64,000 nt of DNA, from NCBI GenBank assembly GCA_017523615.1, contig JAFWWK010000007.1, positions 5,582 to 69,581 of the forward strand. Reading direction: 5' to 3'. The notes beneath the pieces are model-generated. The model worked only from the letters and a program-made list of their open reading frames with translations. It did no database searches and was not told the DNA's origin. The translations under genes and the position numbers were made by a program. Below, one piece after another: positions 7,911 to 52,994 of this stretch. Source of the DNA: Clostridia bacterium. Lineage in GTDB: Bacteria > Bacillota > Clostridia > Christensenellales > Aristaeellaceae. Position 1 is the first letter of the stretch. Every line of letters starts with the position of its first letter.

Positions 7911-8627
7911 ATGCCTCAGACCGTTCTGATCACAGGTACCGGAAGGCCTTATGCCCTGGGCTTCAATCTGGTAAAACGTTATCTTGAAAACGGCGACCGT
8001 GTATTTGCCAGTGTCCGCCGCCCCTCCAAAGCGCTGGCGGAACTGCAAAACCAGTATCAAGGTACGCTCCATATCCTGAATATGGATATCGCCTCCACCG
8101 CCTCGGTGAACGCCGCAGCCGCGGAGTGTGCAAAACTGACCGACAGCCTGGATCTTGTCATCAACAACGCCACCACCGCCTCCGCAGATACGATGAAGGA
8201 ACTTCCTGATTTTGACCTGGACCTGGTAGCCCCCGCCGTCAACGTAGGCGCAGTCGGTCCCATCCGGGTGCTGAAGGCTTTCCTGCCCCTGCTGAAAAAA
8301 AGCGCGATCGGCGCGCTGGTGGTCAATATTTCCTCAGAGGCCGGCAGCATCGGCAAATGCTACCGCACCTTCTACCTGGATTACGGCACGGAAAAAGCTG
8401 CCCTGAATATGCTGACCATGACCATGCACAACTATTTCCGGAACGACCCCAGCTTGAACATCATCTGCCTGCATCCCGGCTGGATGAGGACCAATCCCGG
8501 CAACAACGAAGCTCCCCTGGTCCCCTATGAACATGCCGAAACGCTTAGGCTCCTTTTTGAGAAAAAGCGGCACGACAAAAACGGCCCCGTCTTTATCACC
8601 TGGACCGGGGAACCGTATCCCTGGTAA
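7911..8627 (+). CDS. SDR family oxidoreductase
   Basis: Start set at the ATG at 7911 (AGGAG 9 nt upstream) rather than the track start at 7884. Motifs: VLITGTGRPYALG (Rossmann), NNAT, ISSEAG, YGTEK (YxxxK). Confidence 0.85.
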   Translation: MPQTVLITGTGRPYALGFNLVKRYLENGDRVFASVRRPSKALAELQNQYQGTLHILNMDIASTASVNAAAAECAKLTDSLDLVINNATTASADTMKELPDFDLDLVAPAVNVGAVGPIRVLKAFLPLLKKSAIGALVVNISSEAGSIGKCYRTFYLDYGTEKAALNMLTMTMHNYFRNDPSLNIICLHPGWMRTNPGNNEAPLVPYEHAETLRLLFEKKRHDKNGPVFITWTGEPYPW

Positions 8628-39450: not shown

Positions 39451-41658
39451 CTATCTGTCCTCCTTATGTGGCATGATGCGCTGTTTTCCTTCCGGGATCA
39501 CAGCATCGTCCGCAAAGACCAGCTCGGCCGACAAAAGCTCCGCCTCTTCCGTATCCGCCTTTTCCTCAAGGCCCGCCATGGCGGAGACATCTACCGTGAT
39601 ACCGGTCCTGACGGGGGTCAGGTATATGACCAAAGGCTGCTCCTTTAAGGCTTCCGCATAGGGATCCAGGCGGATGTCCCATTCGCCGCCGTTGCAAAAA
39701 TTGTCGGAGATCAGTTCATTGGCTGCAAACGCGTTTCCGATATCGCCTTGATACCGCACCCGGAGCAGCGCCCTTTTGTGGCCGGGCAGGGTTTCAGCCG
39801 GCAGGTCCATCACATACCGTCCCATACCGGTCCGCCGCCAGGAAACCGGTTCCGGATGAAGCCCGCTGTCGGCGCGGCAGCACAAAATGAACTTTCTATC
39901 ACCCTCCGACCATATATAAACATCCGCTGCGCCGCACTCCATTTCCGCTTTCAGTTCCTCCCCGTCCCACAGAAGCGGCCTATCGCACAGCCAAGCTGTT
40001 TCCCGATACACCCAAAGGTTTCCGGCGTCCCGCCTTGAAAGCGTCATGACCGTCTCGTTTCCCGCTCGGAACGCTTCCCCAGCCCGGGTACGGATCTCCT
40101 GGCCCCGGAAGCAGTAAACCGGCTCCATCCCGTCCGGAACCATAAAAAACCATGTATCTCCAACGTGCGCCAGGGGCTGTGCGGAGGCCCAGTCCAGCAT
40201 CGTGCCGCCGACCGTCATGCCAAAAGGCAGGATGGCATTTTCCCCCGCGGCGATATCAAAACGGAAGGTAACTTCCCCGCCCGGCAGGACCAGGCGCACC
40301 TCTTCTCCGTACCGGGCGCGCATATCGATATGGTCCTGAAAATTGCTGACAAACAGGAAGCCGCTGTTCCCCTTCACCCGCGCCGAAAAGCGCAGCGGCT
40401 CCAGGTCCCCGGGCTGTAATTCTTTCAGGTGTTCCGGCAGGACGGTCTTTGTTTCCTCCAGGAAGCCGGAAAACAGACTGCAGAACATATGGATGGCCTT
40501 CAAGCGTCTGTAACTTTCCCTGACCTGTCCGAACTCACCGACAGCCGCCTGGTAATCATAGCTGCGCCTGGGCACCTGTCCTTCGTTCAGATAGGGCGTC
40601 AGCCGGCCGGTGGGGGTAGTGCCTCCCCTGTACATATAATAACCCAGCAGGTTGCAGCCGCTGCCCAGCTTGGTATTGGCCAGAGCGTCGACAGCCCGCA
40701 TATCCAGGCGGAACCGGTATTTGTAGCTGCACATCATGCCGCCCATCATCTCGCAGCAGGCATAGGGACGGCTCTCCGGGTCGTAGGAGGGTTCAAAATT
40801 GTATTCCTTCGTGACTGCGCTATTGTGGTTGTCCCGATAGATATATTCCGGGGTGGCAGGATGGACGCCGGGTTTATTATAAAACAGCCAGGGCTGATAT
40901 GAATACCCGCCCCAAAGGGGCAGGGCCTCGTTCGTCGGCGTCACCGCGCCGCCCCAGGCTGTCGCGGTATAGAAGGGGGTCACGATGCCCTCCTCCAGCA
41001 TGATCTTTTTCAGCGCCAGCATATAATCCATACCCGAATGCCCGCTGGTGATCCACTCGTTGGAAACACCGGCGGTCATCTCCCACGGAGCGCAGGAATG
41101 CCGGTATTCGTTTTCGATCTGGATGCCCACGATACAGCCGCCCTGGCGATAATAGTGGCCGTCCATCTGCCCGTGAATGGCACGGAAATACTTCCGCACG
41201 GCTTCCAGGAAGCCCGGATCGTTTTCCCGCACGTCATAGGGTTTTCCGTACAGCCAGTCAGGCAGGCCGCCGTTGCGCATCTCGCCATGATCAAAGGGAC
41301 CAACGCGCAGGATCACCATCATATGATGCTTTTCACAGACCTTAAGAAAGCACCTCAGGTCCCGGCATCCGTCGAAACGGAAAACGCCTTCCTCTTCCTC
41401 ATGGACGTTCCAGAACACATAAGCGGACAGGATATTGACTCCTCCGCAGCGCATTTTGACGATACTGTCCTCCCACTGGTCGGGAGCGACGCGGGAGTAG
41501 TGCAGTTCCCCGCTGATACCAAAGAAAGGCTTCCCGTTCAATGTCATATAGTAATTTGTGAATCCGACCTTCCGCCCGTCCGGGGCGCAGCCCGAAAACT
41601 TCTCCCCCAGGGAGAAGATCCTCTTCTCAGGGACACGGGATAGATCCAGCGTGTACAT
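39451..41658 (-). CDS. glycoside hydrolase family 35 beta-galactosidase
   Basis: 735 aa. Motifs GISGELHYSRV, GVNILSAYVFWNVHEEEEGVFRFDG, GGLPDWL and IQIENEY. No signal peptide. Confidence 0.9.
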   Translation of the reverse strand: MYTLDLSRVPEKRIFSLGEKFSGCAPDGRKVGFTNYYMTLNGKPFFGISGELHYSRVAPDQWEDSIVKMRCGGVNILSAYVFWNVHEEEEGVFRFDGCRDLRCFLKVCEKHHMMVILRVGPFDHGEMRNGGLPDWLYGKPYDVRENDPGFLEAVRKYFRAIHGQMDGHYYRQGGCIVGIQIENEYRHSCAPWEMTAGVSNEWITSGHSGMDYMLALKKIMLEEGIVTPFYTATAWGGAVTPTNEALPLWGGYSYQPWLFYNKPGVHPATPEYIYRDNHNSAVTKEYNFEPSYDPESRPYACCEMMGGMMCSYKYRFRLDMRAVDALANTKLGSGCNLLGYYMYRGGTTPTGRLTPYLNEGQVPRRSYDYQAAVGEFGQVRESYRRLKAIHMFCSLFSGFLEETKTVLPEHLKELQPGDLEPLRFSARVKGNSGFLFVSNFQDHIDMRARYGEEVRLVLPGGEVTFRFDIAAGENAILPFGMTVGGTMLDWASAQPLAHVGDTWFFMVPDGMEPVYCFRGQEIRTRAGEAFRAGNETVMTLSRRDAGNLWVYRETAWLCDRPLLWDGEELKAEMECGAADVYIWSEGDRKFILCCRADSGLHPEPVSWRRTGMGRYVMDLPAETLPGHKRALLRVRYQGDIGNAFAANELISDNFCNGGEWDIRLDPYAEALKEQPLVIYLTPVRTGITVDVSAMAGLEEKADTEEAELLSAELVFADDAVIPEGKQRIMPHKEDR

Positions 41659-41808
41659 GGACCATCACACTCCGTTTTCTGCTCTTCTGCGGTTAGACCG
41701 ATGAAAAAGGCACTGTCCCCGCCTTTGCATCGGTCCGGCCGTTATTTTCCGTCATGAAAAACGGGGACATGATCCCCCTTAAACCGTATCGGACACTGGT
41801 TTATGTAT

Positions 41809-41837
41809 ATGATACCATAAACGGCGGAGGATGTGAA
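41809..41837 (-). promoter_or_regulatory. sigmaA-type promoter (extended -10) for the GH35 operon
   Basis: Minus strand: TTCACA (41837-41832), 17 nt, TATCAT (41814-41809), preceded by TGg. The leader to the ATG at 41658 is about 144 nt. Confidence 0.5.
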
Positions 41838-41902
41838 CCCCCGCCGGACCCCGGCCATAAGCCGTTTTATGAACGATCCCTGAATATTCGCGTTTGCTTT
41901 CG

Positions 41903-43669
41903 TCAGGACGGTTTCACGCTGATCAGCAGATGATTGAGTCCCAGGGCGTTCGTGTAAGAAACCTCCGAGGCAAGTCCGCGGATCATCCGAATGCCGTTGT
42001 GCTCTCCCGGGATGTCGGGTTCCCGCAGGTATTTTGTCGGGTCAAAACCGCGGCAGTCGTCATGGAACCGAAGTACCCAGCCGTCGGTGTTCTTTTTTAC
42101 CCGAATATCTATGCTGTGGGGCCTGCCGTCATCAAACCCGTACCGCACGATATTGTCTGCGATCTCCTCCACCGCAAGGGAAAGGATCCCCGCTGCCCTC
42201 TTTGACGCCCCCTCCCTTTCGCAGTACGAGGCGACCATCCTGGAGCAATCCATCACCTCATCGGCGGAATGGCACGACGTGTCCAGTCCCGGAGCCGTTT
42301 CTCCCCGGAAAGCCGGAGGCAGAAGCATCAGCACTTCCGGAAAACGCTTCTCCCCGCTCTTAAAGCGCAGGGCGGCAAACATGATCAAGAAAGCGAGGAA
42401 CTCTCCTGCCGGGAAGGAAAGCCAGATGCCCGGTATGCCGATCAGCCCGTTCAGCACAAAGAGGCATACCACCTCACAGCCCAGGGTGTGCATGAATGTG
42501 AAGACGATATTGCACACCTGCATCTTCATGCTCTGGTAGTATCCTCTGAGGGCCATGTTGACGCTGCGGAAAATGATCGACAGCGAGAAAAGGCGCAGTC
42601 CCATGACAGCGGTGCCAAAAGAACTGTCCCCCGCTTTATAGAACATGGTCATGATGGGAGCGGCGGCAAGCAGCGCGAGGAGGATGATCGCACCATTAAA
42701 AAGAGCGGAATACTTCACAGCCGACCTCATCAGACTCTTCAGGGAAGCTCCATCCTCTTCCTTTCCGTAAAAGCCGGTCAGCGTGGATACCGTGTTCCCG
42801 ATAGCGGAAGACATGCATTGCAGAAGCGACAGCGCGGACAGCGTCGAGGCATATACCGCCAGCAGATCCGAGCCGTACCTGCGCGTGATAAAGTTGTTAT
42901 AAATATATCCCAGAGCCGTGATCATCAGTTGTTTGACCACATAGATATAACCGTAAACGAAGATGTCCTTCACAAAGGCAAAACGGAACAGACCCGGCGC
43001 AAAGCGGAACAGGCGTTTTTTTCCGCGGCGCAAAATGAACACAACGCCAAAACCGGCAAGCTGGCTGACAGCCGTGGCGGCTCCCATGCCCCAGAGCCCC
43101 ATATGGACCACATAACCGTTGAGCAGGTCCAGCACGACATCGACCGCCGCCATCAGGGCAAAGGACAGTATCAACTGCTTTTTTTTGCCGCTGACCAGTG
43201 CGGTTCCCGACAGCACGGCAAAGAGCAGGTACGGAAGGATGCCCAGGACGTTGCCCCGGATATATTCGGCCGTGGGTCCCTGAAGATGCTCCGGCGCACC
43301 GGCCAGCCTCGCAATGTGCCCTGCCGCTGCCAGATACGTAAGCGTCAGCATCCCGCCCAGCGCAAGGGATAGTACGACCGCCGTCGAATAAGCTCCGTCG
43401 CGTTTTTTTTCGTCCTGTTCGTTCGCGTTTCTGGAGAGCAGGACGGATACGCCCGTCATAAGGAACCCGAACACCGCCATTTCGATGCTGGTCGCCGTGT
43501 TGGCGAAGGAGAAAGCAGCCATCGCTTCCGATCCAAGACTTCTCTTGATCACAACAGCGTCGATCACGTTGGCGATGATCTGAGAAATGAAAGAGAGCAT
43601 CTGCACGCCGATCAGGCTTACAAACAGCTTTTCCACCGTATCACGTTTTTTTGTCCGGAACACAGTCAT
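41903..43669 (-). CDS. MATE/MOP-like 12-TM protein fused to a C-terminal RsbW/SpoIIAB-type GHKL ATPase (anti-sigma-kinase-like) domain
   Basis: 588 aa. The first ~440 aa are polytopic and MATE-like (LFVSLIGVQMLSFISQIIANVIDAVVIKRSLGSEAMAAFSFAN). The last ~140 aa carry an N-box AVEEIADNIVRYGF, G1 HDDCRGFD and G2 NGIRMIRGLASEVSY. The ATG overlaps the upstream stop (ATGA). Confidence 0.8.
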   Translation of the reverse strand: MTVFRTKKRDTVEKLFVSLIGVQMLSFISQIIANVIDAVVIKRSLGSEAMAAFSFANTATSIEMAVFGFLMTGVSVLLSRNANEQDEKKRDGAYSTAVVLSLALGGMLTLTYLAAAGHIARLAGAPEHLQGPTAEYIRGNVLGILPYLLFAVLSGTALVSGKKKQLILSFALMAAVDVVLDLLNGYVVHMGLWGMGAATAVSQLAGFGVVFILRRGKKRLFRFAPGLFRFAFVKDIFVYGYIYVVKQLMITALGYIYNNFITRRYGSDLLAVYASTLSALSLLQCMSSAIGNTVSTLTGFYGKEEDGASLKSLMRSAVKYSALFNGAIILLALLAAAPIMTMFYKAGDSSFGTAVMGLRLFSLSIIFRSVNMALRGYYQSMKMQVCNIVFTFMHTLGCEVVCLFVLNGLIGIPGIWLSFPAGEFLAFLIMFAALRFKSGEKRFPEVLMLLPPAFRGETAPGLDTSCHSADEVMDCSRMVASYCEREGASKRAAGILSLAVEEIADNIVRYGFDDGRPHSIDIRVKKNTDGWVLRFHDDCRGFDPTKYLREPDIPGEHNGIRMIRGLASEVSYTNALGLNHLLISVKPS

Positions 43670-44166
43670 TCTTCTTTCAGGATGCGTGCCAGGTCCTCAC
43701 GGATGAAGTCCGGCAGCCAGTCTTTATGCCCCTCAAAATCCTCCCGGATCGCCGTGGAATTGTACAGCCTTTCGCAGATCCGAAAAGAAATGCCGGGGAA
43801 TTCGTCCCGGGTCGCCTCCACCAGCTTCACGCCGTCTTCCCCGACCCATATCTCGTCGATCGGCTCGTTCAGCATCTCCTCAAACAGGTGAATGTACGTC
43901 GCAAAGATGCTCCCAGTATAGGATTTCCCTTTGAAATCGTCTGTGGAAAACATATGGATGTGGATCCTGTGATCCCGGTCGGCGCTGATCCTTTCAAACC
44001 ATTTCATTTTCATCTCGCGGCTTGCCAGATCAACGCCTTCGTTGTAGCGGACAAACAGATGCAGTTCCTTCCTTATTGCCAGGATCCTGTCGATCGCCGC
44101 CAGGTGCCCGTTGTGCGGAGGGTTGAAGGAACCCATAAAGACCACGACTTTTTCTTTTTCACTCAT
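43666..44166 (-). CDS. NadD/NMNAT-like nucleotidyltransferase (HxGH family)
   Basis: Start set at MSEKEKVVVFMG (RBS GGGAGGGGGTGGAG). Motifs GSFNPPHNGH and NSTAIRED (ISSTxIR-like). Confidence 0.75.
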   Translation of the reverse strand: MSEKEKVVVFMGSFNPPHNGHLAAIDRILAIRKELHLFVRYNEGVDLASREMKMKWFERISADRDHRIHIHMFSTDDFKGKSYTGSIFATYIHLFEEMLNEPIDEIWVGEDGVKLVEATRDEFPGISFRICERLYNSTAIREDFEGHKDWLPDFIREDLARILKEE

Positions 44167-44182
44167 TTCTCCACCCCCTCCC

Positions 44183-45358
44183 TCAGCAGAGGTCGTTCTT
44201 TTCAAGATCCGCCTTCAGCGCGTCCAGGCCGGGAAACAGGACGGTCCGCGCATCCTCCAGGGGCTTCCAGGACAGGTAGTTTTCAAGGCCCGGAGCGATC
44301 GCGTACATGACCGCCAGCTTCAGGTGGGCGAAGCGGCGGATCAGGTCTTCCTTCCGTTTGAGTTCGCTTTCCGTTTCACCGGGGAAATAAAGCCGAAGGG
44401 CCCTGTCCCACAGCCTGCGGCAGACGTCCGTATCGATGCCCATGCCCGCCTTGATAAAGGCCGGCTGATAGGATCCCACGAGGATATGGGAAACATACAT
44501 GCCCGCAAGGTCAAAGATGGGATGCCCGCGGGAAACGTCCCCCAGGTCGATCAGCATAAGTTCGTCCCCCTGGAACATCAGGTTATTGGCGTGATAATCC
44601 CCATGCAGCATCGTATCCCTGTCAGGCACGCTGTCGATCAGGCCGTGCAGCGCCTCCATTTCCGTTCCGTTCAGGAACTCTGAAGAGCCGTCCACATACC
44701 CATGATATATCTCTTTGGCTTCCGGAAGGTCGCCCTGCCCCACCGATGTATGATTGATCTGTTTCAGAAGACCGGCGTACAGGGCCGCCAGTTCGTCAAA
44801 CCTCTCCGGCGCCTGGTCCAGTTTCCTGGAAAACTCCTCTGCCCCGGCCATTTCAAAGATGATGCCGTAGCAGTCGTCTACCTGAACGATATCATAGGAG
44901 ATCACGGTCGGGATACCGGAAAGGAGTACCTTCTGTGCGTATTTCCTCTCCCGCCGGATCAGATCGATGGTCACCTTCTGGTTGAATACTTTGACGACCC
45001 GGTCTTCGTCCAGGCGGTATATCATGCCGACCGTTCCCTTTGCCATCAGTGCGCTGTCATCCAGATGGATCCGTTTGAAAGCCTTCTGAACATCCATCAG
45101 AGCGGTCAGTCCCGTTACCTCAAAGATGTCATAGACCGTCTGCGATGCGCCGAAGCAATGTACTTTGCATCCGGACTTGACAACGGTGATCAATGCGCGA
45201 AGCCCTGTGCTGGATATGTATTCCAGTTCTTCGCAGTCTATGAACAACTCTTCCGCGGACTGTTCCCTGATTGCTGCCGAGATCTTTTCATACCATTCGG
45301 CGGTGTTCGTCGTATCCAGTCTTCCTGACAGCTTGATATTCAGTTTTTTCGTCGCCAT
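44183..45358 (-). CDS. STAS (anti-sigma-factor-antagonist) domain fused to an APH/choline-kinase-like phosphotransferase domain
   Basis: 391 aa. The N-terminal ~100 aa are STAS (LSGRLDTTNTAEWYEKI...FIDCEELEYISSTGLRALITVV...VYDIFEVTGL). The remainder is a kinase fold (GTVGMIYRL..VVKVF; LHGDYHANNLMF; MLIDLGD). Confidence 0.8.
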   Translation of the reverse strand: MATKKLNIKLSGRLDTTNTAEWYEKISAAIREQSAEELFIDCEELEYISSTGLRALITVVKSGCKVHCFGASQTVYDIFEVTGLTALMDVQKAFKRIHLDDSALMAKGTVGMIYRLDEDRVVKVFNQKVTIDLIRRERKYAQKVLLSGIPTVISYDIVQVDDCYGIIFEMAGAEEFSRKLDQAPERFDELAALYAGLLKQINHTSVGQGDLPEAKEIYHGYVDGSSEFLNGTEMEALHGLIDSVPDRDTMLHGDYHANNLMFQGDELMLIDLGDVSRGHPIFDLAGMYVSHILVGSYQPAFIKAGMGIDTDVCRRLWDRALRLYFPGETESELKRKEDLIRRFAHLKLAVMYAIAPGLENYLSWKPLEDARTVLFPGLDALKADLEKNDLC

Positions 45359-45447
45359 CCGAGGTTCAGCTCCTTTTCAGCGGCAATTCACTGCGGGCAG
45401 TTCCTGACGCAGTCCTTCAAAGTCGCCCTACATCGGTATTCTACATC

Positions 45448-45476
45448 ATGATACCACAGATGCCAAAGGATGTGAA
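45448..45476 (-). promoter_or_regulatory. sigmaA-type promoter (extended -10) for the STAS-kinase operon
   Basis: Minus strand: TTCACA (45476-45471), 17 nt, TATCAT (45453-45448), preceded by TGg. The leader is about 83 nt. Confidence 0.5.
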
Positions 45477-45586
45477 CCCTGTCATATATCTGTCACAAAC
45501 AGGATCTTCGGTTTTATACGCGTGTGATCCGTACGTCCCCCACACAGCAAAACGCGGAGTGCCGCATATCCGCCGGCCCTCCGTGT

Positions 45587-46258
45587 TCAAGTATCGATCA
45601 GTTTTCCAGCATCCATGCGCAAAAGGACATCGGCGTAATCAGCAGCTTCCGGGTCATGCGAGACCACAAAAACCCCTTTTCCCTTTTGCGCCGTTTCCTC
45701 CAGGATCCTAAGCGTTATCGCCGTGTTCTCATCGTCAAGATCGGCGGTGGGTTCGTCCGCGAATACAAAATCCGGTCCCGCGGTCAGGGCGCGCACAACG
45801 GCCATGCGGCGAAGCTCCCCGCCGGAAAGTTCACCGGGCCAGGCATTCCGCAGCCGCAGGATCCCCAGACGTTCCATGAGGGTCTCCGCCTGGCGGACGG
45901 GCGGCGCAGATCCTGCCAGCGCGGCGGGAAACAGGATATTTTCCATCACCGTCATTGAAGTGATAGCTGAGGCTCCCTGCGGGATCACCGCAAAGTGCCT
46001 TGCTCGCAGCTGTGAAAGCCCGGCGTCGGACAGGCTGTACAGATCCTTCCCGTCAAGCGCCACGGTCCCTTCGGACGGAGTCAGCAATCCGGCCAGCATG
46101 GTCATCAGCGTCGTTTTTCCGCTGCCCGAACGTCCTGTCAGGACCATCATCTCACCGCTGCGCAGCGTCAGGTCAGCATGATGTACGGCTTCAAAAAAAT
46201 TGGCGTCTCCGGTATTGCGCCGAAACCGCCTGGCCAGGCCGCAAGCGGCAAGTTCCAT
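45587..46258 (-). CDS. ABC transporter ATP-binding protein (MacB/LolD-type)
   Basis: Walker A GRSGSGKTTL, signature LSGGELRR, Walker B VFADEPT. RBS GGGAGGGAG. Confidence 0.9.
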   Translation of the reverse strand: MELAACGLARRFRRNTGDANFFEAVHHADLTLRSGEMMVLTGRSGSGKTTLMTMLAGLLTPSEGTVALDGKDLYSLSDAGLSQLRARHFAVIPQGASAITSMTVMENILFPAALAGSAPPVRQAETLMERLGILRLRNAWPGELSGGELRRMAVVRALTAGPDFVFADEPTADLDDENTAITLRILEETAQKGKGVFVVSHDPEAADYADVLLRMDAGKLIDT

Positions 46259-46259
46259 A

Positions 46260-47462
46260 TCAGGCTCCCTCCCTCACGATCGTGCCGATGTCCGCTCGGC
46301 TGAGTTTACGGGCGGAGAGCAGGGCGGCCGTGGGGCCGACAGCGCAGACCGCCGCCAGGGATGCAGCACACAAAGCCAGCATGGCAGGCAAGTCAGGCCG
46401 CAGGAATGGCAGTCCCAGGGTCTGCTCGATCAATCCCGTGAACGGCAGAAAGGTAAGCAATCCCAGGAATATCCCATTCATTCCTCCGAATAAGGATACC
46501 AGGGCCGCTTCCCTCAGCGCCAGACCGGCAAGGCCCCTGCGCGACAAACCGAGCAAACGCAAAACAGCAAACTCCCGCCTGCGTTCGCCTCCCAGCAGCA
46601 GAAAAGCCGCCGTCAGCAAAACCAGGTCCAGCAGCCAAACGCAGACGATCAAAACGGAAATGGTATGCGCTACCCCGCCCAGGGAACGCTCCACATCGGA
46701 TGTGACTGTCCGGGTCTGGATCACGGTGACTCTGGGACTGCGAGTCTGCCTGATCTCCCCCGCAAGCCGGTCTGCTTCGCCCGGGACCGCTTTCACGTAG
46801 ACGGCAGAAACGACCCCGGAAGGATCGCCGTCGATTTTCAATTCGTGGTTCATTTCCCGTGCTGCCGACAACAATTCTGCCATGGTCTCCATGGTGCAGT
46901 AAACAGCGGTATCAAGACCGGTGCCGCTCTCGTCCAGCCGGGCTGCCACCAGGCAAGGCTGCCCGTATATGCGGATGGTCTCGTTTACCCCCGCGCTCAC
47001 CCTGCTGCCCGCCACGACTTCCATTTTGCCCAGTTCCGTTTTCAGTTGTTCCCCGATCCAAGGGCGTATGGTAAAGTCCGTCGCCTGATCAAAACCGATG
47101 ACCTGAATGGGCATGGAGCAGCAATCCGCCCTCAGGCTGGCCAGGAAAACCTGTCCTGAAGCCTGCGCAACGCCCTTCATTGCACGGATCTCGTCCAGTT
47201 TCGAGGCGTTCATATAATAGTATCCGGTGGTACCCTGCAGATATATCTTCTCCGGGTCGATCTTCCCGCGGCTCGTGGCCGGGACCACGATCAGATCCGC
47301 ACCGAGGCGGTTTTCAAGGCTGTGAAGGCCGCGGTTCAGGCTGATCACGATCGCCGACCCGCCAAAAAGCGACAGTGCCAGAAAAGCGACCAGCACCGTC
47401 AGCGAGGCGGTACGTCCCGGATGGCGCAGAAGATTCCGCAGCGGCAGTTTTCGTGGAGTCAT
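46260..47462 (-). CDS. ABC transporter permease, FtsX/MacB-type
   Basis: Start set at MTPRKLPLRNLLRHPGRTASL, whose ATG overlaps the stop of the upstream DUF4418 gene (ATGA). Topology is TM1, a large extracytoplasmic domain, then 3 C-terminal TMs. Confidence 0.85.
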   Translation of the reverse strand: MTPRKLPLRNLLRHPGRTASLTVLVAFLALSLFGGSAIVISLNRGLHSLENRLGADLIVVPATSRGKIDPEKIYLQGTTGYYYMNASKLDEIRAMKGVAQASGQVFLASLRADCCSMPIQVIGFDQATDFTIRPWIGEQLKTELGKMEVVAGSRVSAGVNETIRIYGQPCLVAARLDESGTGLDTAVYCTMETMAELLSAAREMNHELKIDGDPSGVVSAVYVKAVPGEADRLAGEIRQTRSPRVTVIQTRTVTSDVERSLGGVAHTISVLIVCVWLLDLVLLTAAFLLLGGERRREFAVLRLLGLSRRGLAGLALREAALVSLFGGMNGIFLGLLTFLPFTGLIEQTLGLPFLRPDLPAMLALCAASLAAVCAVGPTAALLSARKLSRADIGTIVREGA

Positions 47463-47863
47463 GAACCGGCCTCCCGTCTTTTTGCGGTCAGGCAAAGCAC
47501 GAGCTTCCACAGGGAGACTGCCAGAGTCAGCACGCCCAAAACCAGCGCTGTCGGACCGGTCACCAGACGGCAGCGCATCGTATCCGCCCTGCAGACAGGA
47601 ACGATGACCCCGGGGATCAGGATCACAAGTATGCTCGCGGCTGCCGTCATGCATGGAAACACCCATTTAGGACGAAGGAAGGATACGCCTGCAAGCGCGG
47701 TAATGACGCCGCCCATGACCGTCAACCATGTTTTCACCGGGGCACAGACGGCTGCGCTACCATCCGCATGCACACAGGGGCAAGCGAAAGTCTGGGCCCC
47801 GACGGAAAGGACGACTCCAAGGAAAGCCATGACAGAGCCGAATGCGATATCTCTTTTTTTCAA
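47459..47863 (-). CDS. DUF4418 family Cys-rich small membrane protein
   Basis: 134 aa, 4 TM. Cys motifs FACPCVHADGSAAVCAP and PVCRADTMRCRL fit the conserved-Cys pattern I recall for DUF4418. Confidence 0.7.
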   Translation of the reverse strand: MKKRDIAFGSVMAFLGVVLSVGAQTFACPCVHADGSAAVCAPVKTWLTVMGGVITALAGVSFLRPKWVFPCMTAAASILVILIPGVIVPVCRADTMRCRLVTGPTALVLGVLTLAVSLWKLVLCLTAKRREAGS

Positions 47864-47869
47864 GTGTAT

Positions 47870-48550
47870 TCACTCCCCGAAATGCTCGTTCACGACCTCG
47901 CGGACCAGTCTGCCATGCTCCAGGACAATGGTACGCTGAGCCGCTTCAGCCACCTCCGGGTCATGGGTAACGACGATCAGGGTAGTCCCTTCCCGATGCA
48001 GCTGGCGGAACAGGTCCAGAACAATGTTTTCGTTGGTCTCGTCCAGGTTGCCTGTGGGTTCGTCCGCAAGGATCAGTTCCGGATGATTGATGAGTGCCCT
48101 GGCCACGCACACACGCTGCTGTTCGCCGCCGGACAACTGGCTGGGCAGGTGTCTCGCGCGTTCCCGAAGGCCGACCCTCTCCAGCGCTTCCAGCGCTTCC
48201 GCCTCATCTGGCATGGAGTGATAATACTGGGAAACCATGACGTTCTCCACAGCTGTCAGATAGTTTACCATATGAAACTGCTGAAAGATCAGACCGATCT
48301 TATCCCGGCGGATGTCGGTCAAACGCCTGGAGGATTCCTTGGCGATGTCAATACCGTCAAGAAACACCTGGCCCTTGGTGGGCTTGTCCATACAGCCGAT
48401 GATGTTCATCATTGTGGATTTGCCGGAACCCGAAGGCCCCATGATGGCCACCCATTCCCCCTGATCCACCCTGATGCTCACGTTGTCCAGGGCTTTCAGC
48501 TCGCCATATATTTTGGAGACATTGCGGATATCAAGCAGACTCATGGTCAT
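47870..48550 (-). CDS. ABC transporter ATP-binding protein (MacB/LolD-type)
   Basis: Walker A GPSGSGKSTMMN, signature LSGGEQQRV, Walker B ILADEPTGNLD. Confidence 0.95.
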   Translation of the reverse strand: MTMSLLDIRNVSKIYGELKALDNVSIRVDQGEWVAIMGPSGSGKSTMMNIIGCMDKPTKGQVFLDGIDIAKESSRRLTDIRRDKIGLIFQQFHMVNYLTAVENVMVSQYYHSMPDEAEALEALERVGLRERARHLPSQLSGGEQQRVCVARALINHPELILADEPTGNLDETNENIVLDLFRQLHREGTTLIVVTHDPEVAEAAQRTIVLEHGRLVREVVNEHFGE

Positions 48551-50037
48551 TCTCCTTTCAGAACCAGCGCGGGGTCGATGGCCACAGCGCGCCTGACGGG
48601 CAGCAGACAGCTGAGAGCGGCTACAGCCATTGACACAAGCACCGTGATCGGCAGCAGCCAGAAATTGAACCGGATATCGGATCCGAAAACGTTCACACTG
48701 ACGACCTGCGCAAAGACAAATCCCAGTGCCGCGCCGAGCAGGCCGCCCAGCGCTCCGAGGAACAGTCCTTCCCCAAGGAATTCCCCGCGGATGGCGCCGT
48801 CCGACGCACCCAGAGCCTTTCTCAGACCGATCTCCCGGCGCCTCTCGGTAACCACCGCCATCATGGTGGTCGATACGCTCACCATGGTCAGCACCAGGAC
48901 CACGAGTGTCACCAGAAAAACAAGCGCCTGCAGCTTGCCCAGCACCGAAGTCTCAGATTTGGTCACGCGCTTCACCAGACGAGCGGTGGCATGGCCCGAT
49001 TCCGTTATCTCTTCCGCATAGCGCTCCAGGCTGTCCTGAGTCGCTGAAACGGAGAGTTCCACCAGGTCCAGCTGATCATATGTGCCTGTGATCACGCCCA
49101 TATCGGCCAGGGACATATAAATATATCCTTCTTCCTCCCCGCCGGTCTCGAGGATGCCGACCACAGTGTAATTGATCGTGTGGGGAATATGGGCCGCGCT
49201 TTCTTCCGTCAAAGGCCTTGCGTCTCTGATCGCCTGGACGACCGCCGCCGAGGTCACAGTAGCGCCGGAAACAGCGTCCACATCCCTGCCCAAAGTCAGA
49301 TCCTTTGGATCCTTGCCTATAAAAAGGCCCGTGAACTCTTCTTCGCTGCATTTGGTGCCGACGCCCGCCGTTTCACTGGAGGTATCCACAATGAGGGAAG
49401 CGATGGTGCCGTCCTCGCCAACGGTAAAGGTCACGTACACCGGATTGTCGTTGAATCCTTCACGGCTGCCATATCCCTGCGCGCGGCCGGAAAGCGTCAT
49501 CCCCGGAAGAATGTCAAAATCCGCACTTCCCCGTTCCTCCTCCGGCTCATTCGGCGGGAACCATGTAAGCTCCATGACCCCGTTCAGCCTCGCGCCGACG
49601 GTATCCGCCACACCCTTGCCGACCAAAACTTCCCTGGGACCTTCGGGATAACGGCCGTTCACCTTAAAATATGGGCTTGTGCGCTTTACCTGTTCAAAGT
49701 CTGTACCCGCAGCGGCGAAAGACTGCTGGCGGCGCACCATGTTCAGGTATTCATACCTGTAAGGGGCGGCCCCCACCCGTTCTTCCTCAGGGATCAGTGA
49801 CATAGCAGCGTCCGCTTCTCCCTGTGTCAGGGCGGATCCGTAAGGGACCAACAGCATATTCGCGCCGTAGGACCGGAACTGCGCCGCCATCTGCCTGGGC
49901 ACATCCACATAAACCGTAACAAGACCCGCCAGGATCGTTGCGCCTATGCCGATGGAGAGTAGAGCGATCAGCATCCTTGACCTTCGGCGCAGGAGGGAGG
50001 CGGTGATCATCCGGAAAAACATTCTTCGTTTGCTCAT
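48547..50037 (-). CDS. FtsX/MacB-type ABC permease with an FMN_bind domain inserted in the extracytoplasmic loop
   Basis: 496 aa: TM1, a ~330-aa loop, then 3 TMs. Loop residues ~178-272 read GRAQGYGSREGFNDNPVYVTFTVGEDGTIASLIVDTSSETAGVGTK...GRDVDAVSGATVTSAAVVQAIRDA, the FMN_bind signature including the flavinylation motif SGAT. Confidence 0.85.
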   Translation of the reverse strand: MSKRRMFFRMITASLLRRRSRMLIALLSIGIGATILAGLVTVYVDVPRQMAAQFRSYGANMLLVPYGSALTQGEADAAMSLIPEEERVGAAPYRYEYLNMVRRQQSFAAAGTDFEQVKRTSPYFKVNGRYPEGPREVLVGKGVADTVGARLNGVMELTWFPPNEPEEERGSADFDILPGMTLSGRAQGYGSREGFNDNPVYVTFTVGEDGTIASLIVDTSSETAGVGTKCSEEEFTGLFIGKDPKDLTLGRDVDAVSGATVTSAAVVQAIRDARPLTEESAAHIPHTINYTVVGILETGGEEEGYIYMSLADMGVITGTYDQLDLVELSVSATQDSLERYAEEITESGHATARLVKRVTKSETSVLGKLQALVFLVTLVVLVLTMVSVSTTMMAVVTERRREIGLRKALGASDGAIRGEFLGEGLFLGALGGLLGAALGFVFAQVVSVNVFGSDIRFNFWLLPITVLVSMAVAALSCLLPVRRAVAIDPALVLKGE

Positions 50038-50054
50038 TGTTCAAGCCTCCTTCC

Positions 50055-51353
50055 TCAAGCTTTGCTGCCATGCAGTACTTCGGCCGGATCCAGCCGCAGG
50101 ATCATGCGGATAGCCGGCAGGGAACCCGCAATAGTCACAAGGGAGATCAGCACCACCACCACCGGAATGACCACCGCCTTGATGTCAATGGACGAACCGA
50201 AGACCTGCCTGCCGATGAACCGTGCCATTCCGAGGCCCGCAAAATAACCGACTGCCGTGCCCACCATGGCAGTCAGCAGGATCTCCGCCATGACGACGCA
50301 TGTAATGGCTTTGTCATGGGCTCCGACCGCTTTCAGAAGACCGATCTCCCGGGACCGTTCCATGACCGAGGCGGTCACAAGGTTTGAAATGCCCAGCGCG
50401 GCGCCTACAAGGCTCAGCGCGGTAATAAGGATCATCAGGAGCTGCGTTTTGTTCAGGATCTCGCCCTCGCTCTCCGCCACCTGCCGGACCGCGGAAGCCG
50501 CGGAATCCGTAATGACCTCGGTGATCTGATAGCAGACCGCGCTGACATAAGCCGTGCAGTACCATGTATCGTAATCGGCCCGGGAGAGCGCCTTGGGGTT
50601 CTGGGCGGCACGCCTTGCCAGATCGTTGTCGGGTGTCGTAATGGCGCTGACCTCAACAGACGCTACCTTACCTTCCAGCCCCGCCAGCATTTGTGCCAGG
50701 TCCAGCGGCGCCCAGATTTGTCCGTCGGCGCTGTCGCCGGAATCGAAAACGCCCCGCACCGTGACAACGGCTTCTGAAGCCGTCCCAGTCAGCGTAACGG
50801 TATCTCCTTTTTTGACGGCCAGCCTTTCGGCAAGCGCGGCACCCACCATGATCTCCCTGTCCGCCCCAGGAGCCTGTTCATCGATCCAGTCCTCATCCGG
50901 AACATCCCACCAGGAGCGCAGGCTCCGGACGCCGGCATCCAGTTCCTCGCCCGTGGGCAGGGACAGATGGTGATTGAACCATGTCCCCGTTACGGAGACA
51001 GTTTCTTCCCCGATCCTGGCGCTGACGCTGATGAAGGGGGCGAAATCACGGATATTGAAAGCCCAGAATATGGTTTTCAGGTTGCCGAGCTCATCTTCTT
51101 TCAGCCATGCCTGCTGCAGTTCCGATCCTTCATCCTCTACATCGTAGATCTCCGACAAAAGGGAGGAAGCCTTGGGTTTTACGACGATATTAGCGCCATA
51201 GGCTTTCAATTCCTCATTGACCTTGTCTCCGACGTCCAGCATAACGTTGATCATGGAGGTGGCCAGAGAGGCCCCCAGCGCGATCGTCAGCGCAATAAGC
51301 AGCATCTTGCTCCACTGCCTCACCAACGCGCCTTTGATCATCCGAAACAGCAT
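50055..51353 (-). CDS. FtsX/MacB-type ABC permease
   Basis: 432 aa. N-terminal MIKGALVRQWSKMLLIALTIALGASLATSM, a large loop and 3 C-terminal TMs. RBS GGGAGGGG. Confidence 0.85.
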   Translation of the reverse strand: MLFRMIKGALVRQWSKMLLIALTIALGASLATSMINVMLDVGDKVNEELKAYGANIVVKPKASSLLSEIYDVEDEGSELQQAWLKEDELGNLKTIFWAFNIRDFAPFISVSARIGEETVSVTGTWFNHHLSLPTGEELDAGVRSLRSWWDVPDEDWIDEQAPGADREIMVGAALAERLAVKKGDTVTLTGTASEAVVTVRGVFDSGDSADGQIWAPLDLAQMLAGLEGKVASVEVSAITTPDNDLARRAAQNPKALSRADYDTWYCTAYVSAVCYQITEVITDSAASAVRQVAESEGEILNKTQLLMILITALSLVGAALGISNLVTASVMERSREIGLLKAVGAHDKAITCVVMAEILLTAMVGTAVGYFAGLGMARFIGRQVFGSSIDIKAVVIPVVVVLISLVTIAGSLPAIRMILRLDPAEVLHGSKA

Positions 51354-51369
51354 GCCGCGTCCCCTCCCT

Positions 51370-52875
51370 TTACTTGAATTCTTTTTCGCCGGCGATCAGA
51401 TCGTCCATGGCAAAGACGATGTTTCCGCCTTCTACCCGGAAAGCCAGGGGGATCGGATTGCAGCCGCCCGCAAGTCCGATGGTGTTGGTGTTCATCACCA
51501 CGTCGCAGCGCTTGCAGACCACAGTGTCCCCCCTCTGGAAATAGCCGGCGCTGCCGCAGACGTCACACGCATCCAGCCCGACCCCATATGCGGCGGAATT
51601 CGGTTTTCGGATCACGATCCAGCGAACGCGCGGTGCCTTGTTCGGCGAACCGGACCGGTTCATCTCAAACGCGTGGAGGTTGAAATCATCCACCTGACTC
51701 AGCGGAATGCGCACCTCGATCCGCGATGTATCGTAATTTTTCACATCGACGGCTTCGATCTCACGCTCCTTGCCGTCCTCCCCGATCAGGACAATCGCGT
51801 AGGTCTCCCCCTCGGGAACGGGCGGCGGACGGTTGCAGATCTCATAAACCACTGTCAGGCTGACCATAACGGCGGCCAAAGAAACCAGCACGACGGCGGC
51901 CCATCTGCGGCTGTGCCGGTTGTCGGAGCAAAGACGCCGCTTCTCGGCCGCATTGCGCCAGATGCCGCGCAGCCTCAGGCTTCTCAGGAAGAGCACAGCA
52001 GGCGGGATCATGGCCATCAGTGCAAAAATCAGCAGGATAAAGACTCCGTTTTCAAGATACCCGCCCCTCGTGTGATCGCTTGCCATATACCATTTCCACC
52101 CGGGAAACAGCGGTCCGCCGGCGCTTGCGTTGTTGCGCACCGTGAATTTGAGGAAGGTTTCCGCGTTCAAATGCGGCAGCAGCGTCGGGACCCATTCCGG
52201 CCGTGTTTTTACAGTCCATTGCTGCAGGACCATGCCGTAAAAAACAAAGAAAAGCGCAAACGTCATCAGCGCCGCAGTCAAACGCAGCACCCATCGTCCG
52301 TCACTGACAGGCCGCCCATCCCGATCATTCCACAGCGCAGTGATCTCGCTCAGACGCATACAGCATTTATACAGGAAACGGACATAGACCGCCAGCAGGA
52401 TAAGGCCCGTCAGCCAGCCAGCCAAACGGAGCAGGAATACATCGGAAAGGATCCCGTTATCACCCATTTCAAAATCGCGGGGCGCCCAGATCACCGCCCA
52501 GGCTTTATAAGCGATCAGATCGGCGGAAAGCAGGGCGGAAAGCGCGTTTACGGCCGTTTTGCCTGTCTGCGATCCCTTCTCCTGGGAAAAAACGGAAGCA
52601 GTGATATTCAGGGGCACCAGGATGCCCATGGCGGCATACCACAGGTACAGGTTGATCTGCGTATCCGGAACGGCTTTCTTATCCGGGAAGAAAAATGCCG
52701 GAAACTCATGTGTGACAGCCCGGAGAACGGCCAAGACCAGACCCAGACCGATCCCAGCCAGCATCATGTTTTTTCCCGCTTTGCCCAGGTTCGTTTTTGC
52801 GAGCGCAAACAGCACTGTGATGACTGTCACGACAATGAAAAGGGTTTCCGGGACCTTATACATATGGAGCAGCAC
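51370..52875 (-). CDS. DUF2318 domain-containing polytopic membrane protein (Cj1660-like)
   Basis: The C-terminal soluble domain GLDACDVCGSAGYFQRGDTVVCKRCDVVMNTNTIGLAGGCNPIPL matches the DUF2318 Cys signature. The start is uncertain: GTG at 52875 (GGAGG 8 nt upstream), ATG at 52863, or the track start at 52923. Confidence 0.8.
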   Translation of the reverse strand: MLLHMYKVPETLFIVVTVITVLFALAKTNLGKAGKNMMLAGIGLGLVLAVLRAVTHEFPAFFFPDKKAVPDTQINLYLWYAAMGILVPLNITASVFSQEKGSQTGKTAVNALSALLSADLIAYKAWAVIWAPRDFEMGDNGILSDVFLLRLAGWLTGLILLAVYVRFLYKCCMRLSEITALWNDRDGRPVSDGRWVLRLTAALMTFALFFVFYGMVLQQWTVKTRPEWVPTLLPHLNAETFLKFTVRNNASAGGPLFPGWKWYMASDHTRGGYLENGVFILLIFALMAMIPPAVLFLRSLRLRGIWRNAAEKRRLCSDNRHSRRWAAVVLVSLAAVMVSLTVVYEICNRPPPVPEGETYAIVLIGEDGKEREIEAVDVKNYDTSRIEVRIPLSQVDDFNLHAFEMNRSGSPNKAPRVRWIVIRKPNSAAYGVGLDACDVCGSAGYFQRGDTVVCKRCDVVMNTNTIGLAGGCNPIPLAFRVEGGNIVFAMDDLIAGEKEFK

Positions 52876-52994
52876 GTCAGAGACCTCCGATGAGCAATGA
52901 ATTAAACAGTTGGGAAAGCGCACAACGGCCGGCGCGAGTCTCCCCCGCGGAGAATCGCGCCGGTTCAGGATGAGCCTGTGGCAGTCCGGTCAGA

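Follow-up and report, generated by a model that had tools for sequence, protein, structure and literature searches.

A STAS-fused kinase, an HxGH nucleotidyltransferase and a MATE transporter with a remodelled GHKL domain: a candidate sigma-less partner-switching operon from Clostridia

We analysed a 64,000-nt stretch of DNA from a Clostridia metagenome-assembled genome (contig JAFWWK010000007.1; this whole stretch is called the window below), in which three tightly coupled minus-strand genes encode a STAS domain of the SpoIIAA/RsbV type fused to an APH/choline-kinase-fold kinase (g1), an HxGH nucleotidyltransferase (g2) and a MATE-family transporter ending in an RsbW/SpoIIAB-like GHKL domain (g3). 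The open reading frame list places g1 at 44183–45358 (391 residues), g2 at 43666–44166 (166 residues, counted from its ATG) and g3 at 41903–43669 (588 residues), which is where an initial annotation of this DNA had put the three genes. We read the operon as a sigma-less, stripped-down variant of partner switching, in which the STAS domain of the kinase would dock on the remodelled GHKL domain of the transporter, coupling a two-step activation to transport, and we put the probability of this reading at about 0.5.

Public entries for the three proteins (MBR6705178-80, from a Clostridia metagenome-assembled genome) are labelled only 'ATP-binding protein', 'adenylyltransferase/cytidyltransferase family protein' and 'phosphotransferase'. 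A literature search returned no paper describing the MatE-HATPase_c_2 fusion, the STAS-APH fusion or TIGR02172, an uncharacterised paralogue family whose NCBIfam model is the nearest to g1; against the anti-phage defence models of PADLOC-DB, none of the three proteins gave a match at E ≤ 0.01. Both fusion proteins belong to large families for which that search found no description, and every functional step that we propose beyond domain identity is one that we infer.

The three proteins

The N-terminal part of g1 (residues 1–95; 45074–45358, minus strand) is a STAS domain and the remainder (residues 96–391 and the stop codon; 44183–45073, minus strand) an APH/choline-kinase-fold small-molecule kinase domain. 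Pfam assigns STAS to residues 8–91 (E = 5e-11) and APH to residues 119–300 (E = 1e-14; 55 bits against a cut-off of 23.2), both above the curated cut-offs. The STAS assignment barely passes the NCBIfam model ant_ant_sig (53.7 bits, cut-off 53.45), while a g1-family profile retrieves SpoIIAA structures with E-values between 3e-13 and 2e-11. In this alignment the phosphorylatable serine of SpoIIAA (S58) corresponds to S50 of g1, within the motif YISSTGLR (family form YISS[AT]GLR), which lines up with the DSSGLG and DSAGL motifs of SpoIIAA and TM1442. Both S49 and S50 are invariant across 29 g1 homologues, and 21 of 22 locus-encoded STAS partners keep the serines, the remaining one reading TS.

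The kinase domain carries the Lys-Glu pair, the motif HGDxHxxN (Brenner motif HxDxxxxN) and the Mg-binding Asp of IDLGD, with K123, E137, H252, D254, H256, N259 and D271 invariant in the homologue alignment. An AlphaFold2 (AF2) model of g1, with a predicted local distance difference test score (pLDDT) of 93.6, matches the APH fold in Foldseek with a probability of 1.0. The best matches are capreomycin phosphotransferase (Cph), a choline/ethanolamine-kinase family protein, APH(2'')/(3') and methylthioribose (MTR) kinase, at 12–19% identity, and hygromycin kinase is also among them. Judged by these motifs, g1 is a small-molecule kinase of the APH/ChoK fold whose catalytic residues are intact. 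Its score against TIGR02172 (106 bits) lies below the cut-off of 228.2, some STAS-APH homologues bearing the Joint Genome Institute label 'TIGR02172 family', and the NCBIfam resistance models stay far under their cut-offs (APH_3p 13.5 bits against 205). Matches of g1 to TCAD9 and EcKL were discarded as weak, below cut-off and overlapping the APH signal.

As called, the open reading frame of g2 reaches back to a TTG at 44205; homologues begin at MSEKEK, and the ATG at 44166 was taken as the start. The resulting protein of 166 residues (43666–44166, minus strand) is an HxGH nucleotidyltransferase that resembles PPAT and NMNAT enzymes. It has the motifs GSFNPPHNGH, HLFVRYNEGVDL, KGKxY, GxD and NSTAIR (as NSTAIRED), and G20, H21, S137, T138 and R141 are invariant in the homologue alignment. 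Pfam finds CTP_transf_like (PF01467; E = 8e-7, 29.7 bits, cut-off 21), and a g2 profile run against the PDB retrieves the NMNAT domain of NadR at 4e-6, PPAT at 1e-4 and the cytidylyltransferase TagD (1coz) at an E-value of 0.35. In Foldseek, the AF2 model (pLDDT 92.4) comes closest to PPAT (template modelling score 0.66–0.75), followed by NMNAT, NadD, NadR and NadM, at 14–19% structural identity. The motifs by which g2 had first been called NadD/NMNAT-like are thus present, but by profile and fold the protein is equally close to PPAT/CoaD.

All equivalog models leave g2 below their cut-offs (coaD, 26.7 against 103 bits; nadR_NMN_Atrans, 25.9 against 341; NadD models, at most 20 against at least 150), and the family-specific motifs HLFVRYNEGVDL and KGKxY belong neither to PPAT/CoaD nor to NMNAT/NaMNAT enzymes. 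On this evidence we read g2 as a distinct adenylyltransferase-like enzyme, which would probably transfer an adenylyl rather than a cytidylyl group. A housekeeping CoaD or NadD was ruled out by the equivalog scores together with the strict pairing with g1 described below. A Kennedy/lic-type choline pathway was likewise ruled out, g2 being nearer to adenylyl- than to cytidylyltransferases and no LicD-like gene being found among the neighbours.

The third protein, g3, combines a polytopic MATE-family membrane domain (residues 1–440; 42350–43669, minus strand) with a C-terminal GHKL domain (residues 461–588; 41906–42289, minus strand). Pfam MatE (PF01554) matches in two stretches, corresponding to the repeats (E = 6e-19), and the NCBIfam model matE (TIGR00797) aligns over residues 24–416 at 96 bits, under its subfamily cut-off of 147. 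A hydropathy scan gave 13 overlapping windows over threshold, which resolve into about eight separate hydrophobic segments, and a basic N-terminus; the MATE part also matches multidrug efflux models (FepA, PRK09575) weakly. In MATE structures both termini lie on the cytoplasmic side, which, together with the basic N-terminus of g3, argues that the GHKL domain is cytoplasmic. HATPase_c_2 was found over residues 473–577 at E = 8e-11, so that all five Pfam families expected for the operon, STAS, APH, CTP_transf_like, MatE and HATPase_c_2, are present above their curated cut-offs.

We aligned the GHKL domain of g3 to RsbW (6m36_A) and SpoIIAB (1tid_A). The N box (AVEEIADN) is intact. The G1 box reads HDDCRGF, with the Asp kept and the Gly replaced by Cys, and the G2 box reads EHNGIRM; canonical partners have IGGLGIF at this position, and g3 keeps only the last G2 glycine, followed by Arg. 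The ATP lid is 4–8 residues shorter than in canonical partners. The initial annotation had listed the N, G1 and G2 boxes as present, and this stands for the N box and the G1 Asp, but not for the G1 glycine or the G2 box. RsbW itself lacks the second G1 glycine in the same alignment.

These departures are a family trait and not decay, because the same pattern runs through 81 full-length MATE-fused GHKL proteins. E501/E502 and D537 are conserved in 81/81 and N506 in 78/81, while the G1 glycine position holds Cys in 72, Gly in eight and Ala in one; at G2 the Gly is kept in 77 and the basic residue that follows (R/K561) in 75, giving a family consensus of D-[DN]-C for G1 and x-x-G-I-[RK] for G2. 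By contrast, D.G.PyDP and iGGLGi are retained, and the lid is longer, in 54 RsbW-like domains that adjoin STAS-APH proteins or are fused to them. By these motifs, g3 carries a GHKL domain that departs from the canonical RsbW kinases.

Conservation and gene neighbourhoods

The trio recurs with unrelated flanking genes (loci are numbered L and single proteins P), at 61% identity in L001/L002 and 45% in L003, and is also found in the species-representative genomes L009, L010 and L011 and in L089 and L173. Overall, it is present in at least five lineages (L001/L002, L003/L089, L009, L010, L011 and L173) at 45–95% identity and with different flanks, as anticipated if the three genes are conserved together, and its transporters form one clade in a neighbour-joining tree of 81 MATE-GHKL proteins. 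No PP2C gene was found in any trio locus. The tightest pair is that of g1 and g2: wherever this g1 subfamily was observed the two genes lie side by side, and in P0032 they form a single protein of 555 residues (53% identity to g2, E = 2e-55). This natural fusion and the strict pairing support consecutive enzymatic steps, in line with the early suggestion of a phosphorylation followed by a nucleotide activation.

Outside the trio, the two fusion architectures belong to much larger families. An exhaustive search with the C-terminal 153 residues of g3 as query returned 1768 cluster representatives (50% identity) at E ≤ 1e-3, of which 531 reach E ≤ 1e-10, most matches being 580–610 residues long with the domain at the C-terminus; by this result, the tiny family of about 16 fusion homologues that a word-indexed search had suggested was a sensitivity artefact. 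A scan of species-representative genomes with an alignment of eight GHKL sequences confirmed 133 relatives, and the best 80 loci were analysed. Among these best 80 of 133, most carriers belong to the Lachnospiraceae and Oscillospiraceae of the rumen and gut. Those in culture include Butyrivibrio sp. XPD2002, Oribacterium sp. WCC10, Sarcina sp. DSM 11001 and Sporofaciens sp.; a metagenome-assembled genome of Selenomonas ruminantium also carries a copy, and scattered matches occur in Treponema, Sphaerochaetaceae, Synergistaceae, Cloacimonadaceae and Slackia.

Within 1.5 kb of the 73 full-length MATE-GHKL copies from species-representative genomes, a STAS-containing gene is present in 17 cases, or in 22 (~30%) if APH-family genes are counted as well, and the copies so neighboured are spread across the whole MATE-GHKL tree. 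As a rough yardstick, if a genome holds about ten STAS genes, a STAS neighbour is expected by chance in about 1% of cases. No sigma-factor family appears among the 25 most frequent Pfam families (of 57 matched) in 55 operonic neighbours of MATE-GHKL genes. One locus, L015 (4508–8569), holds a complete module and encodes in a row a SpoIIE-type PP2C protein (523 residues), a free canonical RsbW-like protein (141 residues), a MATE-GHKL protein (589 residues) and a free STAS protein (100 residues), the transporter occupying the slot that the sigma gene holds in Bacillus operons. A separate canonical RsbW-like kinase lies beside MATE-GHKL in L015, L051 and L084, and a STAS-APH protein with its own canonical GHKL domain does so in L037, L062 and L162.

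Other MATE-GHKL genes are coupled to enzymes of different kinds. APH-family genes without a STAS domain flank them in L044, L057 and L076, and in L076 (4141–9315) three APH paralogues surround one MATE-GHKL gene, one of them a STAS-APH and two without STAS. GH3 acyl-acid amido synthetases are the partners in L016 (4861–8384), L019 (4843–8384), L023 (4900–8384) and L083 (2871–6441), and single nonribosomal peptide synthetase (NRPS) modules of the adenylation–peptidyl carrier protein–condensation (A-PCP-C) type in L012 (3670–8414) and L073 (635–5346). Coupling is by an ATGA-type overlap in L016, L019, L023, L012 and L073, and by a 20-nt gap in L083. In the neighbour-joining tree these GH3/NRPS-coupled transporters are the sister group of the trio clade. 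A plant parallel is the pairing of the GH3 enzyme PBS3 with the MATE transporter EDS5 in salicylate synthesis.

The STAS-APH family numbers 435 proteins in a word-indexed search and at least 488 confirmed relatives in a metagenome scan. In 80 metagenomic STAS-APH loci, screened with hidden Markov models (HMMs) built for this analysis, a GHKL domain is present in 46; by type, 26 are fused to the STAS-APH C-terminus, 18 are free or fused to PP2C and three are MATE-GHKL. Fusions of STAS-APH to a canonical HATPase_c_2 domain are thus seen in 26/80 loci and additionally in P0050, P0093 and P0134. Free STAS genes (~99 residues) occur in 31/80 loci, PP2C in 23/80 and, directly upstream, HD_4 in 13/80. 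Because such fusions and neighbourhoods recur, the pairing of STAS with an RsbW-type domain is not a chance juxtaposition. The earlier view of the two domains as the halves of a switch therefore gains from these counts (46/80 STAS-APH loci and 17/73 MATE-GHKL copies), but not as far as the GHKL domain of g3 was taken for a canonical RsbW kinase.

HD_4 is a domain which we take to be a 3'-(pyro)phosphohydrolase of the RelA/SpoT/Mesh1 type. A gene of this kind, encoding about 190 residues, stands directly 5' of STAS-APH in L092-L093, L098, L111, L120-L121, L130, L144, L146, L149-L150 and L164. In L096 (2–1051, minus strand) HD_4 is fused to APH, and this fusion, with the adjacency, suggests that one phosphorylated small molecule is handled by both the kinase and the hydrolase. 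In L008 a 5TMR-LYT membrane sensor is fused to SpoIIE and HATPase_c_2 and is followed by HD_4 and STAS-APH. STAS-APH is thus normally part of a complete partner-switching module, of which it would be the enzymatic output; such a module comprises PP2C, an RsbW-type kinase, free STAS and often HD_4. Since relatives of g1 occur with PP2C and canonical kinases, the operon in the window is a stripped-down variant and not the archetype: an adenylyltransferase stands in place of the relatives' HD_4, and the canonical kinase and phosphatase are missing. Near STAS-APH genes we also observed proteins of ~370–416 residues with STAS at one end and an unassigned remainder (L091, 8115–9365; L150, 312–1418), which could represent additional fusions of STAS to enzymes belonging to this network.

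Proposed mechanism and alternative explanations

According to our model, g1 and then g2 would act on one small molecule, converting X-OH to X-phosphate and then to ADP-X; in the reverse order, the g1 kinase would phosphorylate the product of g2. The STAS domain of g1 would serve as the plug, a handle linking this kinase family to RsbW-type GHKL domains, and the socket would be the C-terminal domain of g3, presumably cytoplasmic and the sole RsbW-type GHKL domain in the operon. Through this docking, the transporter would recruit or gate the kinase, or the kinase-STAS protein would gate export of the product. For the GHKL domain of g3, docking combined with nucleotide sensing would be a likelier role than that of a canonical serine kinase, because its G1 and G2 boxes and lid are remodelled, PP2C is absent from the window and from the trio loci, and separate canonical kinases are present in several MATE-GHKL loci. 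From the patterns in these sequences we infer the physical docking of STAS on GHKL, consecutive catalysis, the direction of transport and the lack of kinase activity in g3.

Several observations weigh against this model. The g1+g2 pair occurs without any MATE-GHKL gene in two lineages, L005/L169 and L171, so that the enzyme pair can do without the transporter; the co-occurrence of the two fusion architectures thus holds for the trio lineages but not for these two. Similarly, 42 of 74 MATE-GHKL copies (the 73 genomic ones and L089) show no labelled neighbour at all, and for more than half neither a STAS nor an APH gene lies in the available flank, many of the remaining contigs being truncated. 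MATE proteins are classically cation-coupled drug exporters, so that the cargo may be another compound than the product of g1 and g2, and the two enzymes may act in either order. Finally, the GHKL domain of g3 keeps its Glu, Asn and Asp, so that it could bind ATP and phosphorylate Ser50 of the STAS domain, with a phosphatase possibly encoded outside the 64-kb window.

In one of the transporter-less lineages, L005/L169, the STAS domain is weak, and the related P0032 scores below the cut-off for Pfam STAS. P0029 (388 residues) reads YIAGIG where the near-identical protein of L169 (3823–4989) reads YISSIG, both serines being lost in P0029. Such decay where the GHKL partner is missing is possibly due to relaxed selection; the case is anecdotal, and its direction is the one expected if STAS serves GHKL. 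In the same lineage without MATE-GHKL, genes for NADAR, a 139-residue protein and DUF3990 follow g1 and g2 convergently (L169, 5531–7079, minus strand; L170, 1302–2850, minus strand). NADAR has been linked to derivatives of NAD and ADP-ribose (PMC9503650), and its presence here might hint at what the NMNAT-like g2 acts on, or might be a coincidence.

The neighbourhoods of the wider families lean in two directions. GH3/NRPS-coupled paralogues and the STAS-less APH neighbours (L044, L057, L076) lean to coupling with a cargo pathway, and the survival of g1+g2 without a transporter, together with the HD_4 partners, leans to a signalling metabolite. Taken more broadly and only tentatively, STAS-APH proteins may be the enzymatic outputs of a widespread partner-switching network in rumen and gut Bacillota, in which a kinase together with either HD_4 or a PPAT/NMNAT-like adenylyltransferase would control a small molecule, possibly resembling a nucleotide or cofactor, and MATE-GHKL proteins may be a large class of transporters gated post-translationally by STAS on a pseudo-RsbW domain.

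The alternative that survives best, although we consider it unlikely, is a true phospho-switch, in which the GHKL domain of g3 would be an active RsbW-type kinase that responds to the state or substrate of the transporter and phosphorylates Ser50 of g1 to toggle the APH kinase, a PP2C protein encoded elsewhere resetting the system. The HATPase_c_2 match above cut-off, the conserved STAS serine and the near-invariance of the N-box Glu and Asn and the G1 Asp in the 81 family members (Asn in 78/81) agree with such a kinase, and the invariant Glu, Asn and Asp keep this explanation alive. STAS-APH relatives sit in modules with PP2C and active-looking kinases, the missing second G1 glycine is shared with RsbW, and the kinases acting on the STAS domain of All4160, a protein from Anabaena discussed below, were identified by a two-hybrid screen and not from the gene neighbourhood (bioRxiv 10.64898/2026.04.08.717354). 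On the other hand, the first G1 Gly is Cys in 72/81, the GxG of G2 is cut to a single Gly followed by Arg/Lys, the lid is 4–8 residues shorter, and PP2C is found neither in the 64-kb window nor in any trio locus. The separate canonical kinases (L015, L051, L084) and STAS-APH-GHKL proteins (L037, L062, L162) beside MATE-GHKL suggest that phosphorylation is done by those.

Less likely again, in our judgement, is a nucleotide- or cofactor-like signalling output, with MATE-GHKL as a membrane input and not an exporter. STAS-APH would then phosphorylate a ribose hydroxyl of an adenine-nucleotide-type molecule, which HD_4 or a g2-type enzyme would remove or supply, and MATE-GHKL would play the part of the membrane-anchored PP2C-GHKL proteins of the relatives. 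APH-fold enzymes do phosphorylate sugar hydroxyls. The 13/80 loci with HD_4 directly upstream of STAS-APH and the HD_4-APH fusion fit this idea, as do the 5TMR-LYT sensor fused to SpoIIE and HATPase_c_2 in L008, the proximity of g2 to enzymes that make dinucleotide cofactors and the persistence of g1+g2 without a transporter. It is a case of guilt by association only, however; no nucleotide kinase is found among the closest folds of g1, at the top of which stand antibiotic, choline and methylthioribose kinases, and coupling of MATE-GHKL to biosynthetic GH3 and NRPS enzymes fits an exporter better than a sensor.

We regard a xenobiotic or antibiotic resistance cassette as distinctly improbable. 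Here the kinase would inactivate a drug or plant toxin and the MATE protein expel it, STAS and GHKL fine-tuning the process and g2 being accessory, in agreement with the best structural matches of g1 (the antibiotic kinases Cph, APH(2'') and APH(3') and hygromycin kinase), the weak matches of the MATE part to FepA and PRK09575 and the APH paralogues clustered around MATE-GHKL in L076. Yet identity to resistance kinases is 12–19%, APH_3p scores far below its cut-off as given above, the family is embedded in signalling modules, and g1 is strictly paired, and once fused, with an HxGH adenylyltransferase, a type of enzyme for which we know of no role in drug modification. That the genes are merely co-located, with STAS and GHKL as evolutionary leftovers and no functional wiring, is the least probable explanation, because the absence of the transporter from some g1+g2 lineages, the weak STAS domain of one of them (with the serines lost in P0029) and the degenerate GHKL motifs, which would suit it, are set against purifying selection on STAS and GHKL where both are present, with invariant motifs across 45–95% identity, against conserved translational coupling and a STAS-GHKL association that recurs over the whole MATE-GHKL tree, and against STAS decay specifically in a transporter-less lineage, which argues for a functional link.

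Should the docking of STAS on the GHKL domain be true, it would offer a testable mechanism for the post-translational gating of MATE exporters, a new mode of MATE regulation, and it would point to a phosphorylated and adenylylated metabolite or pathway yet to be identified in organisms relevant to ruminant digestion, both families being concentrated in rumen and gut Bacillota that include Butyrivibrio, Oribacterium, Sarcina, Selenomonas and Sporofaciens.

Genomic setting and relation to known systems

Within the operon, the stop codon of g1 (TGA, 44185–44183) is separated from the ATG of g2 (44166) by 16 nt (44167–44182, minus strand). The strong ribosome-binding site of g2, GGGAGGGGGTGGAG, lies within this gap and not inside g1, where it had first been placed, the size of the gap being as noted then. 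The genes g2 and g3 share the ATGA start/stop overlap noted at the outset (43666–43669, minus strand), a sign of translational coupling, and an identical –3 overlap is present in L001, L009, L010 and L011. A terminator-like hairpin (41822–41846, minus strand), found by a consensus scan, has a 9-bp stem with eight GC pairs and a T-rich tail and lies 57 nt past the g3 stop.

Upstream of g1, the consensus scan identified a promoter-like element, GGTTCACATCCT-N10-TGGTATCAT (45448–45478, minus strand), with a –35 hexamer TTCACA, a 17-nt spacer and a TG-extended –10 hexamer TATCAT. The sigma-70-like hexamers span 45476–45448, about 90 nt 5' of the g1 start. The site assigned in the initial annotation is therefore present, and both hexamers are kept in L009 and L010 while the spacer drifts, but promoter-like sites in the stretch around the operon are not above chance in number (five found, 2.5±1.7 expected). 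The motif as a whole, with 21 specified bases, occurs in two exact copies in the 64-kb window, against none expected. The second copy (41809–41839, minus strand) lies right after g3, within the terminator hairpin and upstream of a GH35 gene; L009 has both copies (4829–4859 and 8467–8497) and L010 the upstream copy only. The twin motif could place both transcription units under common regulation, or stem from a promoter duplication that the cassette left behind on insertion. A direct repeat, TGACAG-N5-TGACAG (45479–45495, minus strand), abuts the –35 hexamer; it is kept in L009 and L010, is not present in the more distant trio loci, and may function as an operator. The trio of L003 is closely preceded by a gene for a LytTR response regulator. 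No riboswitch or leader was detected, an Rfam scan of 41500–46000 by E-value giving only a meaningless miRNA match (E = 0.44).

All window open reading frames of at least 50 residues were scanned with our own HMMs, five SpoIIE domains having served to build the PP2C model, and none showed a PP2C, an RsbW-like domain of the canonical type, an HD_4 or any STAS domain besides that of g1. The ten nearest genes encode GH35, DUF5107-TPR, HAD and MacB/FtsX ABC components, with no sigma factor among them. These results confirm the view that neither a sigma factor nor a PP2C phosphatase is adjacent. A further hairpin (45567–45552) closes the upstream ABC-transporter gene. This gene belongs to a cluster (45587–52923, minus strand) of two ABC ATPases and three MacB/FtsX-type permeases, one of which (48547–50037) carries an inserted FMN_bind domain; the cluster also encodes a small DUF4418 membrane protein, whose open reading frame as called overlaps that of the permease at 46260–47666, and an FtrD-like membrane iron-sulfur protein (51370–52923). 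A second MATE transporter in the window (17430–18800, plus strand) is a plain protein of 456 residues without a GHKL domain. The nearest species-representative genome is RGIG6770, a sheep-rumen Clostridia metagenome-assembled genome.

Partner switching is the textbook mode of sigma-factor control. The operon shares with the SpoIIAA/SpoIIAB/SpoIIE-sigmaF and RsbV/RsbW/RsbU-sigmaB modules of Bacillus a STAS antagonist with the conserved serine and a HATPase_c_2-type GHKL domain with its N box, and relatives of g1 adjoin PP2C phosphatases and canonical kinases as in those modules. It differs in that no sigma factor or PP2C lies by the operon, that the partners are fused to an enzyme and a transporter, and that the G1 box, G2 box and lid of the g3 GHKL domain are remodelled. 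In cofactor salvage, PnuC works with NadR, which joins a ribosylnicotinamide kinase to an NMNAT, and PPAT acts in coenzyme A (CoA) synthesis. Here too, a kinase is paired with an adenylyltransferase (fused in P0032, as in NadR) and a transporter is alongside; however, g1 has an APH/ChoK fold where NadR has a P-loop kinase, salvage systems have no STAS or GHKL domain, and the equivalog scores are low. We know of no MATE protein that acts as an importer. Cph, APH(2'')/(3'), choline/ethanolamine kinases and MTR kinase resemble g1 in fold and catalytic motifs, at 12–19% identity, but lack its N-terminal STAS fusion.

Post-translational modulation of transporters by STAS domains has precedents in MlaB-MlaF of the Mla ABC transporter, where STAS regulates the transporter (PMC7367683), and in SulP/SLC26 proteins, where a C-terminal STAS domain is part of it (PMC8256260). 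In these systems STAS acts on an ABC ATPase or within the transporter, whereas here the receptor would be on a MATE transporter and STAS is on a separate enzyme. Partner switches with outputs other than a known sigma factor include SypA/SypE of Vibrio fischeri and BtrV/BtrW/BtrU of Bordetella (PMC10120452; PMC8256260), which use the same logic of STAS and RsbW-like kinase; their STAS proteins are free-standing, their kinases soluble and their targets, as far as described, related to secretion or biofilms, with no fusion of STAS to an enzyme or of GHKL to a transporter.

The closest precedent is All4160 of Anabaena, in which an N-terminal STAS domain is likewise fused to a biosynthetic enzyme, a glycosyltransferase, that is directly regulated by partner-switching-like phosphorylation through the phosphatase HenR and the kinase Alr3423, with no sigma factor (bioRxiv 10.64898/2026.04.08.717354; also PMC8256260). 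All4160 carries a glycosyltransferase where g1 carries an APH-fold kinase, and it has neither a transporter-fused GHKL domain nor an adenylyltransferase. The impression that the combination is not a described system thus holds for the two fusions, neither of which turned up in our literature search, but not for a STAS-enzyme fusion as the direct output of such a switch. Direct control of an enzyme by partner switching has only just been shown, for this one cyanobacterial glycosyltransferase; in the operon described here, the putative plug and socket sit on a kinase and a MATE transporter.

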